IMG/VR virus record: IMGVR_UViG_2563366831_000008
Length of the DNA: 10,941 nucleotides
Reading direction: 5' to 3' (one strand)
Source: a virus
Lineage: Duplodnaviria > Heunggongvirae > Uroviricota > Caudoviricetes
This document shows positions 2,645 through 10,941 of this stretch, in pieces. Below the pieces are notes generated by a model. That model saw only the letters and a program-made list of their open reading frames with translations, did not search any database and was not told the origin of the DNA. Both the position numbers and the translations under genes were made by a program. Each line of letters begins with the position of its first letter. The first letter of the stretch is position 1.

Positions 2645-3321
2645 CGCCATTGCTCCCCAAATACAAAACCAATTTCAGCCAGTGCCTCGTCCATTTTTTC
2701 GATGAACTCCGGCACCATCTCGTCAAAACTCGCCATGTACTTTTCATCCCGCTCAACCACGACATAATGCAGGCCTTCACGCTTCATACGCGGGTCATAG
2801 TTGGCAAAGTACCAGGCATCTTTTCGCGTCACCCACATGCTGTACTGCACCTGGGCCATGTAAGCCGATTTTATTGCCTCGAAACCACCGAGCCGGAATT
2901 TCATGAAATCCCGGGAGGTAAACGGGCATTTCAGTTCCAGGCCGTTGCCGTCACTGCATAAACCATCGGGAGAGCAGGCGGTGCGCATACTTTCGTCGCG
3001 ATAGATGATCGGGGATTCAGTAATATTCACGCCGGAAGTGAATTCAAACAGGGTTCTGGCGTCGTTCTCGTACTGTTTTCCCCAGGCCAGCGCCTTAGCA
3101 TTAACTTCCGGAGCCACACCGGTGCAAACCTCAGCCAGCAGGGTGTGGAAGTAGGACATTTTCATGTCAGGCCACTTCTTTCCTGAGCGGGGCTTTGCTA
3201 TCACGTTGTGAACTTCTGAAGCGGTGATGACGCCGAGCCGTAATTTGTGCCATGCATCATCCCCCTGTTCGACAGCTCTCACGTCGATCCCGGTACGCTG
3301 CAGGATAATGTCCGGTATCAT
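2641..3321 (-). CDS. exo: Lambda exonuclease (Red-alpha), 5'-3' dsDNA exonuclease
   Basis: 226-aa protein essentially identical over its length to lambda Exo as I recall it ([40 protein letters not shown]...GFVFGEQWR); overlaps the bet stop by 4 nt. Confidence 0.97.
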
Positions 3322-4103
3322 GCTGCCACCTTCTGCTCAGTGGCTTTCTGTTTCAGGAATCCAAGAGCTTTCACTGCTTCGGCCTGTGTCAGTTCTGACG
3401 ATGCGCGAATGTCGCGGCGAAATATCTGGGAACAGAGCGGCAATAAGTCGTCATCCCATGTTTTATCCAGGGCGATCAGCAGAGTGTTAATCTCCTGCAT
3501 GGTTTCATCGTTAACCGGAGTGATGTCGCGTTCCGGCTGACGTTCTGCAGTGTATGCGGTATTTTCGACAATGCGCTCGGCTTCATCCTTGTCATAGATA
3601 CCAGCAAATCCGAAGGCGAGACGGGCACACTGAATCATAGCTTTATGCCGTAACATCCGTTTGGGATGCGACTGCCACGGCCCCGTGATTTCTCTGCCTT
3701 CGCGAGTTTTGAATGGTTCGCGGCGGCATTCATCCATCCACTCGGTAACGCAGATCGGATGATTACGGTCCTTGCGGTAAATCCGGCATGTACATGATTC
3801 ATTGTCCTGCTCAAAGTCCATGCCATCAAATTGCTGGTTTTCATTGATGATACGGGACCAGCCATCAACGCCCACCACCGGAACGATGCCGTTCTGCTTG
3901 TCAGGGAAGGCGTAAATTTCTTTCGTCCACGGATTAAGGCCGTACTGGTTGGCGACGATCAACAATGCGATGAACTGCGCATCGCTGGCATCACCTTTAA
4001 ATGCCGTCTGGCGAAGAGTGGTGATCAGTTCCTGTGGGTCGACAGAATCCATGCCGACACGTTCAGCCAGCTTCCCAGCCAGCGTTGCGAGTGCTGTACT
4101 CAT
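3318..4103 (-). CDS. bet: Lambda Bet (Red-beta) single-strand annealing protein
   Basis: 261-aa protein matching lambda Bet ([37 protein letters not shown]...), same length and context. Confidence 0.97.
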
Positions 4104-6125: not shown

Positions 6126-6398
6126 TCATCTTGCTGTCAGTTGTTTGGATTTCCGGTAGCCTGCCGCGTAAAGAGCTACGTTTGGAAGACAAGTTGAGCC
6201 TTCATATTTTCTGGTCAGCGTTGTCAGTGTTATTACTTCTGCTCTCATTGCTGGTTTGCGCTTGCATTGCAAGACCACTCGTGAAGGGGTTGGCCTGTGT
6301 AGCTTGTCGGAGCTGATCGCCTTCTGACTTTGCAGATTTGCGCGACGAGCTCTACGGCGAGAAGCTGCGGTGCCTTTAAATTCTGTTTTTCTGGACAT
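6126..6398 (-). CDS. N: N-type transcription antitermination protein (90 aa), of the 933W/H-19B/phi21 type rather than lambda
   Basis: N-terminal arginine-rich motif MSRKTEFKGTAASRRRARRANLQ and C-terminal ...CLPNVALYAAGYRKSKQLTAR, which resembles Stx-phage N proteins as I recall them; SD GGGAGG before the ATG at 6398 (track ORF start at 6482 has no RBS); first gene after pL/nutL. Confidence 0.85.
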   Translation of the reverse strand: MSRKTEFKGTAASRRRARRANLQSQKAISSDKLHRPTPSRVVLQCKRKPAMRAEVITLTTLTRKYEGSTCLPNVALYAAGYRKSKQLTAR

Positions 6399-6496
6399 AG
6401 ATTCCTCCCGAATAAACTTTGGCGATGCAATCTCGAAGCTCCTCCTGAGACGGTTGCTTCGGCATTGCATCCCACAGCTCATGTGGTTGGGTGATC

Positions 6497-6542: not shown

Positions 6543-6588
6543 CTGCCAGTCTGTTCCGTTTGGCTTCCAGCGTCCTGCTGACGGTTAA

Positions 6589-6617
6589 ATAGTACGATAT
6601 GTACTTTATTGTGTCAA
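6589..6617 (-). promoter_or_regulatory. pL promoter candidate
   Basis: Minus strand TTGACA (plus 6612-6617), 17-nt spacer, TACTAT (plus 6589-6594); correctly placed upstream of nutL and N. Confidence 0.5.
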
Positions 6618-6673: not shown

Positions 6674-6808
6674 GTTTTTTAGCGTGGGTGTATTGCCTCG
6701 GCGATGTAAGGAGAGATCAGAATTGCGTGGTTTAGTGAGTTGTATCTATTTATTTTTCAATAAATACATTTGGTTATGTGTCTTTAGGTGGGGGCGTGAG
6801 GCAAAGAA

Positions 6809-6830
6809 AACCCGGCGCTGAGGCCGGGTT
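6809..6830. terminator. Bidirectional rho-independent terminator (tIMM-like)
   Basis: AAAA-CCCGGC-gctgag-GCCGGG-TTTT: 6-bp GC stem with a U-tract on either strand, directly after the stop of the HicA-like gene. Confidence 0.6.
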
Positions 6831-7115
6831 TTAGCTAATGATTTGGAATCCTATATCCTCAAGCGTTGCGTCACCTCTGCATAACGCATGAAAGTGACGA
6901 GCTTTCAGTCCAGCTTGCTTAGCCATGGATTTTATTAAATCTCTGGAGAATGGGGCGTGATGCTTATCAACTGTAACCACCCATTTTCCTTTACTGTTCT
7001 TGAGAACCCACTGTTCGTGAGAGGTTCCTGTTTTAGGTTTCATTTCAAACCCCATTTTCTTAAGTCCCCTGATTACCTCGTCGTATTTCAAAGGAGTAAG
7101 CTTTTTCAAGAACAT
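6831..7115 (-). CDS. HicA-family (YcfA-like) putative mRNA-interferase toxin, 94 aa, with a C-terminal extension of roughly 25 aa
   Basis: Core KYDEVIRGLKKMGFEMKPKTGTSHEQWVLKNSKGKWVVTVDKHHAPFSRDLIKSMAKQAGLK fits the HicA pattern (GxxH motif, basic dsRBD-like fold signature); start is 11 nt after the upstream HicB-like stop. Family call is from motif memory, not a search. Confidence 0.7.
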   Translation of the reverse strand: MFLKKLTPLKYDEVIRGLKKMGFEMKPKTGTSHEQWVLKNSKGKWVVTVDKHHAPFSRDLIKSMAKQAGLKARHFHALCRGDATLEDIGFQIIS

Positions 7116-7126
7116 GTAATGTAACC

Positions 7127-7423
7127 CTAAGCATGAGCATCACAAGGCTCAGCAAAGAGTTTTGCTTCACCTCGTTTTCTGACAAAAACCTGAAATGCAA
7201 TTACCCAATACTTAAGCCACATAGATAAAGGTGCTTTCCGACTTAGTAGTTGTTTTGCATATTCCGGCTCTGATAGCGCTTCAGTGAAAAAATCTTTAAT
7301 CTGCTCATCCAGTTTGTTTACAGCTTCTTTCATAGTATCTGCTTGCGCTGCCAATGACAGGTCTAAACATGCAGCTACGTAAACGCCGTTCTGCTGGTAG
7401 GCCATGCAACGTAAGGTTTTCAT
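7127..7423 (-). CDS. HicB-like (RNase-H-fold antitoxin domain) protein, 98 aa, without a recognisable DNA-binding domain
   Basis: N-terminal GVYVAACLDLSLAAQADTMKEAVNKLDEQI resembles the HicB N-domain signature (beta-strand, then xGxT/EEA helix); strong SD GAGGAGA 6 nt before the ATG at 7423; located upstream of the HicA-like gene. Confidence 0.6.
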   Translation of the reverse strand: MKTLRCMAYQQNGVYVAACLDLSLAAQADTMKEAVNKLDEQIKDFFTEALSEPEYAKQLLSRKAPLSMWLKYWVIAFQVFVRKRGEAKLFAEPCDAHA

Positions 7424-7595
7424 TTTATCTCTCCTCAGAAGCTCTCATGTAGGAGCTTAAGTGAAGTTTACCCTATAGGTAATTTTAGACAACCCCAAAA
7501 TACCTATATTTTGTAAATGTCAATACATTAGCAGCGAATACCTTCCAACTTATCCACAAGCCAGAGATTGATAGCTTAAAAAACAAACAGAGAAA

Positions 7596-8255
7596 TTACC
7601 CAAACGTCTCTTCTGGCCACTGGCTGGCGATAACTTTCCCCACAACGGAACAACTCTCATTGCATGGGATCATTGGATATTGCGGGTTTAGTGGCTGTAG
7701 AAACACCTGACCGCTATCCCTGATCAGTTTCTTGAAGGTAAACTCATCACCACCAAGTCTGGCTATGCAGAAATCACCTGGCTCAACAGCCTGCTCAGGG
7801 TCAACCAGAATTAACATCCCGTCAGGAAAACTAGGTTTGGAACCTGTTGGGGCGGTCATCGAGTTACCTTCAACCTCAAGCCAGAATGCAGAGTCACTGG
7901 CTTTTTTGGTTGTGCTTACCAATCTCTCCGCATCGCCTTTGGTAAAGGTTCTGAGTTCTGGAGAGAACATCCCAGCCTGAACATGAGAAAAAACAGGGTA
8001 CTCATATTGTTTTTTAACTGGGGCCGATGAGTATTCGCCAACAGGTGAAAATGTCCCGTCGTGGTTGAATGATATGTTATCAATACCAAGGTATTTAAAC
8101 ACCACACCAATATCACTAAGAGATGGATGACGAGATCCGCGCAACCAGTGTCCAATTCCACCCTGCGTCATACCTAGCTCTTCGGCTAACTTCTCTTGAG
8201 TTATGCCGAGCTCTTTCATTCTGGATCTAGCCAGTTCATACCATTTCATTTTCAT
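7596..8255 (-). CDS. cI: CI prophage repressor (HTH N-domain plus S24 LexA-like autocleavage C-domain); chimeric
   Basis: From ...[28 protein letters not shown]... to the C-terminus the protein matches lambda CI; the N-terminal ~100 aa (HTH ...[20 protein letters not shown]...) is unrelated to lambda CI. Start is uncertain: the track ORF begins at a TTG (8297), the first ATG is 8291; 8255 or 8249 (MKMKW/MKW) fit the AAGGA SD best. Confidence 0.88.
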
Positions 8256-8366
8256 GTCCTTATTATTACGCTCTGTATTGCAACCATCCATGCACAATGT
8301 GTATTTTTTCTTGCATTAAAAAAGTACATATTGTATTTTTTTCTTCATGGTTACTATGGAGGGCAT
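8256..8366. promoter_or_regulatory. OR region: divergent pRM/pR promoters and operators
   Basis: pR candidate: TTGCAT (8311-8316), 17-nt spacer, TATTTT (8334-8339), about 25 nt upstream of the cro ATG. Palindromic elements GTATTTTTT-N9-AAAAAAGTAC (8301-8327) and AGTACatattGTAT (8323-8336). pRM not pinned down. Confidence 0.55.
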
Positions 8367-10614: not shown

Positions 10615-10941
10615 ACCGCCCCGGGTTTCCTGGAGAGTGTTTTATCTGTGAACTCAGGCTGCCAGATCATCGTTTCCGATGGAAGCATAATAAGCTTTTT
10701 CTGCTTCTGCCGGAGGAGTATGGCCCAGCCTTTCCAGCAATCGTCGATTGTTATACCAGTCCACCCACGTGAGTGTGGCCAGTTCCACTTCTGCACGGTT
10801 TTTCCAGCTCTTACGGTGTATTACCTCCGCTTTGTAAAGACCATTGATGCTCTCCGCCATCGCGTTGTCATACGAGTCGCCTGTACTTCCTGTTGATGCC
10901 AGTAATCCGGCTTCCTTAAGCCGCTGTGTGTAGGCCAGCGA
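10612..10941 (-). mobile_element. IS3-family insertion sequence (IS629-like), right end; element continues beyond the window
   Basis: Terminal sequence TGAACCGCCCCGGGTTTCCTGGAGAG begins exactly where similarity to lambda P stops, and resembles the IS629 terminal inverted repeat as I recall it; a transposase 3' end follows on the minus strand. Confidence 0.8.
10654..10941 (-). CDS. IS3-family transposase (OrfB, DDE integrase domain), C-terminal fragment; 5' part lies outside the window
   Basis: ...MAESINGLYKAEVIHRKSWKNRAEVELATLTWVDWYNNRRLLERLGHTPPAEAEKAYYAS is the conserved C-terminal region of IS3-family OrfB; the frame is open to the window edge; stop is 42 nt inside the IS end. Confidence 0.8.
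   Translation of the reverse strand, partial: SLAYTQRLKEAGLLASTGSTGDSYDNAMAESINGLYKAEVIHRKSWKNRAEVELATLTWVDWYNNRRLLERLGHTPPAEAEKAYYASIGNDDLAA

Follow-up and report, generated by a model that had tools for sequence, protein, structure and literature searches.

HicA toxins act as mRNA interferases independently of the ribosome, and are neutralised by the binding of HicB. In the canonical systems, such as those of E. coli K-12 (PDB 6hpb/6u0i), B. pseudomallei (6g1n/6g26), Y. pestis (HicA3B3, 4p78) and S. pneumoniae (HicBA, 5yrz), HicA has about 58-65 aa; in E. coli K-12 hicAB the toxin gene comes first. Gerdes has sorted HicA loci into 14 classes (mBio 2024, PMC10865869). The canonical HicB proteins, with their C-terminal HTH or RHH domain, fall into Classes 3 and 4 of this scheme, whereas Class 2 modules, or hicBA, have hicB before hicA, the HicB being small (63-103 codons) and lacking a DNA-binding domain. 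According to the same work, Class 2 modules are still without experimental test. Its Table S1 includes a Class 2 pair of Enterobacter hormaechei, QLT26295.1/QLT26294.1, recorded as 'hicBA (plasmid)?'. A prophage-borne HicA/HicB pair has also been studied in Pseudomonas putida, the HicAB2 of prophage P1; it is a toxin-first hicAB with a conventional locus name and belongs to a different subfamily (Sci Rep 2026, PMC12894663).

The pair studied here shares with Class 2 the B-then-A order, a HicB of 98 codons, a gap of 11 nt and the lack of a DNA-binding domain. With the canonical systems it has in common the HicA family and the catalytic-type histidine. It differs from them in its HicB, which is devoid of HTH or RHH domain and has a two-helix insert between α1 and β4 with an invariant Arg in an RKAP motif, and in its longer HicA of 94 aa; in contrast to E. 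coli K-12 hicAB, the antitoxin gene precedes the toxin gene. Since HicB has no HTH or RHH domain, autoregulation by operator binding is not to be assumed for this pair. The E. hormaechei pair of Table S1 has proteins of the same lengths (98 and 94 aa) and an identical 11-nt gap; three residues in HicB and two in HicA separate it from ours (97-98% identity). The proteins are therefore not substantially different, and what the Gerdes paper does not describe is the location in lambdoid prophages, between cI and the immunity terminator. The preliminary description of this DNA had presented the module as one of atypical architecture. This cannot be maintained, as the architecture is that of a published class, catalogued down to this very pair, and both genes bear RefSeq names. 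The pair is an ordinary, already catalogued toxin-antitoxin cassette and not a discovery. We consider it, with a probability of roughly 0.8 that covers the toxin-antitoxin identity and the cassette nature, to be an exchangeable moron that fills the slot between cI and the tIMM-like terminator with a functional type II toxin-antitoxin cassette (hicBA, Class 2).

The window, that is the whole stretch of 10,941 nucleotides analysed, corresponds to the early region of a lambda-like prophage, with int, exo, bet, gam, N and cI on the minus strand and cro, cII, O and P on the plus strand. The cI repressor gene (7596-8297, minus strand; Pfam Peptidase_S24 and HTH_3) encodes a protein that shares 98.7-99.6% identity with its counterparts in phages 2B8, Nil2, ev207 and phi-8. 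It lies directly upstream of the cassette and in the same orientation. The pair is thus placed between cI and a GC-rich bidirectional terminator, upstream of pL and of N (6126-6482, minus strand; Pfam N_peptide). A promoter scan located a pL-like promoter, TTGACA-17-TACTAT, at 6617-6589 on the minus strand, and a 24-nt inverted match links the OL region (6587-6610) to the OR region (8318-8341). The same region, identical to the window, is found in E. coli O55:H7 CB9615, in a prophage inserted at the lambda attachment site beside ybhC; the locus tags of the pair in this strain are G2583_RS04835 and G2583_RS04840. Of 5426 complete E. coli genomes, 20 have the exact cassette. The P gene of the window prophage is truncated, with an IS3-family transposase adjoining, and because IS3 disrupts P the prophage is probably defective.

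The two genes are tightly linked on the minus strand, with the lengths and the gap announced beforehand: the hicB-like antitoxin gene at 7127-7423 and hicA at 6831-7115. The spacer from the hicB stop codon (TAG) to the hicA ATG, 11 nt at 7116-7126, contains only a weak Shine-Dalgarno-like motif, AGGG. With the antitoxin gene first and hicA beginning so soon after it, the two are expected to be co-transcribed, and the weakness of the AGGG motif suggests that their translation is probably coupled. The hicB gene has a Shine-Dalgarno sequence of its own, GAGGAG (7431-7436, minus strand), which is kept in the 83%-identical cassettes L053-55.

The toxin assignment is supported by several lines. The 94-aa protein matches the HicA profile PF07927 (E 8.4e-11), scoring 42.3 bits where the gathering score is 27, its residues 12-70 covering positions 2-58 of the 58 in the profile, and nearly all of its homologues carry the same domain. 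It is assigned to phrog_353, 'toxin', in PHROGs, and named 'type II toxin-antitoxin system HicA family toxin' in RefSeq. In an alignment of 29 homologues, His33 of the motif G30-T-S-H33 is invariant, as are 18 other columns. When compared by hhalign with a canonical 61-aa HicA (probability 92.5%), T31-S32-H33 come to stand opposite GSH of the GSHH motif, and His33 also aligns with the His of Thermus thermophilus HicA (1whz), for which the sequence alignment using the family profile reaches E 0.028. Other solved HicA sequences, being too divergent, gave no match to the 94-aa protein in the PDB sequence search. The HicA-type core noticed at the outset is thus well founded, and the C-terminal tail of about 25 residues attributed to it has to be shortened: residues 70-79 (xxRxFHxLC) align with the C-terminal helix of 1whz and belong to the conserved core, which reaches approximately residue 79, and only the last 15 residues or so (80-94) form a variable extension, missing from homologues of 80-82 aa. 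From what is known of the family, the protein is predicted to be a small ribosome-independent mRNA endoribonuclease with a dsRBD-type fold, which would cleave mRNA without the ribosome by means of His33, located in the turn after strand 1.

For the 98-aa protein, sequence comparisons alone remain below threshold. No Pfam family of the HicB clan (HicB, HicB_lk_antitox, DUF1902, UPF0150) is reached, the closest being DUF1902 with 16.4 bits against 22 (E 0.01). Sub-threshold DUF1902 matches recur in 20 of 31 family members at E<0.1, the best at E 2.9e-4, and RefSeq names the product 'DUF1902 domain-containing protein'. Profile comparison by hhalign connects the family to a published Class 2 HicB (probability 82.6%) and gives no signal with a canonical RHH-HicB (1.9%). 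In the PDB, the protein and its family profiles found only insignificant matches, the best of HicB fold being TTHA1013 and TTHA1756 (E 0.4-1.6), and the solved HicB sequences were absent from the profile matches. The predicted structure is more informative. An AF2 model with 130 family sequences as input (pLDDT 84.9, pTM 0.74) has the topology β1(3-11) β2(14-19) β3(24-28) α1(31-51) α2(53-60) α3(66-81) β4(87-93). Its top structural matches are, consistently, HicB structures, whereas a first, shallow model (pLDDT 65.6) had matched none of them. The model displays the β-β-β-α-β order that characterises the partial RNase H fold of the HicB family, and from this topology all 98 residues would make up one such domain of HicB/DUF1902 type, β1-β2-β3-α1-[α2-α3 insert]-β4. 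Conserved motifs of the family are LRC.A, C.DLsLAAQADT, LL.RKAPLS and F.E; the two-helix insert carries the most conserved of them, LL.RKAPLS, with Arg62 invariant. On the strength of this predicted structure, the sequence methods being sub-threshold, we take the 98-aa protein to be a HicB-fold antitoxin, which would neutralise HicA by direct binding as is usual in the family.

The proposal that this protein has neither HTH nor RHH domain stood up to all approaches: no DNA-binding domain was detected by Pfam in the protein or in its family, and the model is single-domain. The lengths in the family agree with this, since an exhaustive profile search gave 1459 clusters at E<=1e-3 of which the best 150 are all of 80-167 aa and matched over almost their full length. 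As to the likeness of the pair to HicA and HicB, it holds through the PF07927 match for the one and the fold of the model for the other; at the level of Pfam thresholds, the 98-aa protein stays below every family of the HicB clan.

Both genes behave as a unit. Relatives of the 98-aa protein were located at 39 species-level loci in Gammaproteobacteria, and at 35 of these the next gene downstream, in the same orientation, is a HicA homologue, with spacers of -1 to 18 nt. Compared with the 83%-identical cassette L053, pN is 0.08-0.11 while pS, at 0.73 and 0.89, is saturated (for hicA, pN 0.08 and pS 0.89). Judged from these sequence comparisons, both genes are under strong purifying selection. 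The initial suggestion of a toxin-antitoxin module is thereby supported by the Pfam match of HicA, the HicB fold of the model, the conserved linkage and the purifying selection.

The cassette has been captured repeatedly behind repressor genes. Five different cI genes are found upstream of it, four for E. coli-type repressors and one from a Pseudomonas phage. Close relatives stand behind three other S24 repressors (214, 221 and 237 aa), with N_peptide- or N36-type antiterminators on their other side. In the phage collection, tblastn recovered distant pairs only, in seven Pseudomonas phage records; in one of these phages, Medea1, the pair is directly downstream of the annotated cI and is itself unannotated. 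By megablast in the same collection the cassette occurs in no E. coli phage record, where the terminator alone matches. Other copies stand within the tail or baseplate regions of prophages, those of Klebsiella included, another one adjoins an Arc/Mnt-like gene, and further ones occupy ordinary chromosomal neighbourhoods without phage genes. The surroundings of the 39 genome loci were surveyed by eye on crude ORF calls.

The position itself deserves comparison with other phages. The element that closes the region, a tIMM-like bidirectional intrinsic terminator (6807-6832), consists of a GC-rich 10-bp stem, AAAACCCGGC/GCCGGGTTTT, with a 6-nt loop, and overlaps the stop codon of hicA. On the minus strand it folds with -16.3 kcal/mol (z -3.8 against shuffled controls) and is followed by UUUUCUUUG; on the plus strand the values are -19.9 kcal/mol and z -3.2. 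Both strands fold well below shuffled sequences, in agreement with the bidirectional terminator first proposed at the end of the pair. It is 91-94% identical to an immunity-region element in 103 lambdoid phage records (megablast, phage collection), and in the record of mEp332 the matching element carries the annotation 'immunity region' and 'terminator'. As this terminator directly follows hicA, the pair occupies exactly the position of rexAB in lambda, as had been claimed, and the same slot is used recurrently in other prophages. BstA of BTP1, an NYN-domain protein in 2B8 and a DUF1828 protein with a hypothetical gene in ev207 are found at the corresponding place, delimited by cI and the immunity terminator, and have the orientation of cI. 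What the slot contains varies, and is probably expressed in the lysogen. Because phages with practically the same cI (98.7-99.6%), namely 2B8 and ev207, hold other cargo there, we regard the slot as a swap site and hicBA as an interchangeable passenger among others. Of this cargo, rexAB and BstA have an established defence phenotype. With rexAB the pair has only the genomic position in common: RexA and RexB families are absent from the Pfam scans of both proteins, PADLOC is also without match, and while RexAB are a sensor and a membrane effector, our pair is predicted to be an RNase toxin and a protein antitoxin.

The terminator completes a cI-hicB-hicA transcription unit just before pL. A further terminator separating cI from hicB was considered and discarded, the interval folding no better than shuffled sequences (z -1.0). 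Since no strong terminator follows cI, transcription of hicBA from pRM in the lysogen is plausible on sequence grounds; it would proceed by read-through and stop at the tIMM-like terminator. The cassette need not rely on cI transcription, as it has a conserved 5' region of its own, which would be a second source of transcripts. About 100 nt 5' of hicB accompany the cassette into prophages whose cI genes differ, starting from a TTGACA hexamer (7518-7523, minus strand) that is kept as TTGACA or TTGACT, beyond which the sequences diverge. In the E. coli LF82 lysogen, prophage HicB/HicA pairs have been listed among the expressed prophage genes ('morons'), which, by analogy, is consistent with expression of hicBA in the window prophage.

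What the cassette does for its carrier may be seen in several ways. By analogy, the history of the slot, with rexAB and other cargo, together with Gerdes's argument, would favour a device of abortive infection or exclusion, in which HicA would be freed when an infecting phage stops host transcription or when HicB is degraded. This defence reading is tempered by HicAB2 of the P. putida prophage P1, which is toxic and neutralisable and gave no defence or stability phenotype (PMC12894663), and we hold it only tentatively, at somewhat less than even odds. The search for known defence families suggested at the start came out empty: no family of PADLOC-DB 2.0 matched either protein at E up to 1, and the NCBIfam scan of both was also without match.

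Alternatively, the pair could serve prophage addiction or retention, being selected for killing the cells that lose the prophage and not for anti-phage defence. Such is the classical behaviour of type II toxin-antitoxin systems on mobile elements, as in phd/doc of P1, and the authors of a study of gonococcal HicAB propose prophage maintenance as a possible role. The many mobile contexts of the cassette, including tail-gene morons without obvious expression in the lysogen, fit this explanation, as does the truncated P gene beside the IS3-family transposase, since retention of such a prophage cannot rest on phage fitness. However, integrated chromosomal prophages are seldom lost by segregation, the cassette is also present at stable, non-mobile chromosomal sites, and in P. 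putida neither the excision nor the copy number of prophage P1 was affected by its HicAB2 (PMC12894663). We find addiction doubtful, if still a serious candidate. The probability left by defence and addiction goes to a selfish passenger.

The recurrence behind five different cI genes, and the co-orientation with cI within the cI-tIMM unit, uninterrupted by a strong terminator, would also suit a regulator of phage development. If hicBA expression depended on pRM, cleavage of cI upon induction would end the synthesis of HicB, and HicA set free would degrade host or phage mRNA and so modulate induction or host shut-off. Against this stand the cassette's own conserved 5' region and its occurrence as a unit at places remote from repressor genes. 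The unrelated cargo found in the slot of same-cI phages places such cargo outside the core developmental circuit, and in N. gonorrhoeae the expression of a prophage hicAB was unchanged upon knock-down of a cI-like repressor. A developmental role therefore appears improbable to us. That the 98-aa protein is no antitoxin and some unrelated small protein, HicA being solitary and inactive or controlled otherwise, could be argued from the sub-threshold sequence searches and the first structural model without HicB match, but is hardly credible given the consistent HicB matches of the deeper model, the order and tight linkage kept in 35 of the 39 loci, the strong purifying selection on both genes and the lethality to be expected of a solitary active HicA.

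The pair is of modest value. It offers a convenient experimental entry point to HicAB systems without DNA-binding domain (Classes 1 and 2), whose regulation is raised as a question in the literature, since it is situated in the best understood transcription unit of phages, from cI to tIMM, behind several repressors and with a compact, dyad-bearing 5' region. It also adds one more example of the lambdoid cI-downstream slot as a swap site for small lysogen-expressed cargo, next to rexAB, the NYN-domain protein and the DUF1828 pair.

A residual interest lies in the 5' region. No sigma-70 promoter reaching the scanner threshold of 9/12 was found between cI and hicB (7424-7595). Conservation points to a candidate cassette promoter, with a score of 8/12, at 7465-7492 on the minus strand, in which TTGTCT (7487-7492) and TAAACT (7465-7470) are separated by 16 nt. 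A -10-like TAnACT precedes the ATG by 41-42 nt in the window and in cassettes L053, L041 and L045, reading TAAACT, TACACT or TAGACT among the last three. The -35-like hexamer is bracketed by an inverted repeat with 12-nt arms, TATAGGTAATTT/AAAATACCTATA (7474-7508), which we rejected as a conserved operator as it is absent from the 83%-identical cassettes L053-55.

As a separate observation, this region is conserved and dyad-symmetric, yet neither of the two proteins has a recognisable DNA-binding domain. One may imagine that the family of HicB proteins without such a domain autoregulates by an undescribed mode, and also that the five-fold capture behind cI means a lysogen-expressed exclusion system; we judge this combination unlikely. 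Possible routes of autoregulation would be that the helical insert of HicB, with the invariant Arg of RKAP, is a new DNA-binding element, that the whole HicBA complex binds DNA, or that HicA, as an RNase of dsRBD fold, targets a hairpin in the leader of the mRNA that encodes it.

The dyad in question, AAGCTC-N8-GAGCTT (7439-7458, minus strand), lies in the hicB leader, just downstream of the -10-like TAnACT, and could serve as an operator or as a 5' hairpin. The idea of a stable RNA hairpin was set aside because the fold is weak (z -0.7), and the 1-nt spacers of the Photorhabdus and Xenorhabdus dyads also argue against this form. Among 43 non-redundant upstream regions, 33% contain a perfect inverted repeat with arms of at least 6 nt, against 12% +- 4.5% in shuffled sequences; none of 200 shuffles reaches the observed 33%, a figure that is indicative only since the loci are related. 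The last 48 nt before the hicB ATG are 85% identical to those of L053 although synonymous sites are saturated, and despite the same saturation the arms of the dyad are identical in L053-55; in other subgroups its position is taken by dyads of different sequence.

The pairing of a hicB-like gene with hicA next to a repressor gene recurs beyond lambda-like prophages. In Pseudomonas phage Medea1 (MW862109), such a pair lies immediately 3′ of the annotated cI and on the same strand, at about 3171-3701 of the compared locus L059 (record positions 37929-38459). The Medea1 record does not annotate the pair; it instead places two hypothetical ORFs, Medea1_0055 and Medea1_0056, on the other strand of that stretch. 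In a metagenomic phage-like contig (L057 2809-3814), the cassette directly follows an Arc/Mnt-like repressor gene, an arrangement similar to the immI-type context of P22 and a further instance of the cassette downstream of a repressor. A Stenotrophomonas sp. locus (L019 4617-5408, minus strand) carries a putative S24 LexA/cI-type repressor ORF convergent with the cassette, an assignment made by visual inspection of rough ORF calling.

The slot between cI and the immunity terminator also receives other cargo. Phages ev207 and 2B8 encode the same cI as the window (98.7-99.6% amino acid identity) and differ in what follows it: a DUF1828 protein and a hypothetical gene in ev207 (L060 1133-2439), and an NYN-domain (RNase-like) protein in 2B8 (L061 1476-2333). 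The two records assign no function to either cargo.

Dyad-symmetric elements are enriched family-wide in the upstream regions of hicB-like genes. When these regions were scanned from -62 to -11 relative to the ATG in loci L002-L059, arms of at least 6 nt were present in 33% of them vs 12% in shuffles. The dyads immediately follow a -10-like TAnACT; their position is constant and their sequence varies between subgroups. Such enrichment is odd for an antitoxin devoid of a recognisable DNA-binding domain. The window also contains a longer inverted repeat (7474-7485 / 7497-7508), with 12-nt arms of which 11/12 positions are complementary and an 11-nt spacer, flanking on both sides a -35-like hexamer 5′ of hicB. 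This repeat is missing from the 83%-identical cassettes located behind other cI genes (L053-55), and is thus specific to the window's version of the cassette. Elsewhere in the immunity region, a 24-nt inverted match (83%) links the pL/OL region (6587-6610) with the pR/OR region (8318-8341); it probably corresponds to operator and promoter sequence common to both regions for this immunity type.

In E. coli O55:H7 CB9615 (L001 5538-6324), whose prophage is otherwise near-identical to that of the window, the annotation gives bet a frameshift and breaks N into pseudogene pieces, whereas the window ORFs for bet (261 aa) and N are intact. The 20 E. coli carriers of the exact cassette thus represent differing stages of prophage decay. 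The window prophage is itself probably replication-defective, since the product of its replication gene P has 221 aa vs 233 aa in CB9615 and an IS3-family transposase fragment (10615-10941; ORF 10654-10860, minus strand) adjoins the 3′ end of the gene.
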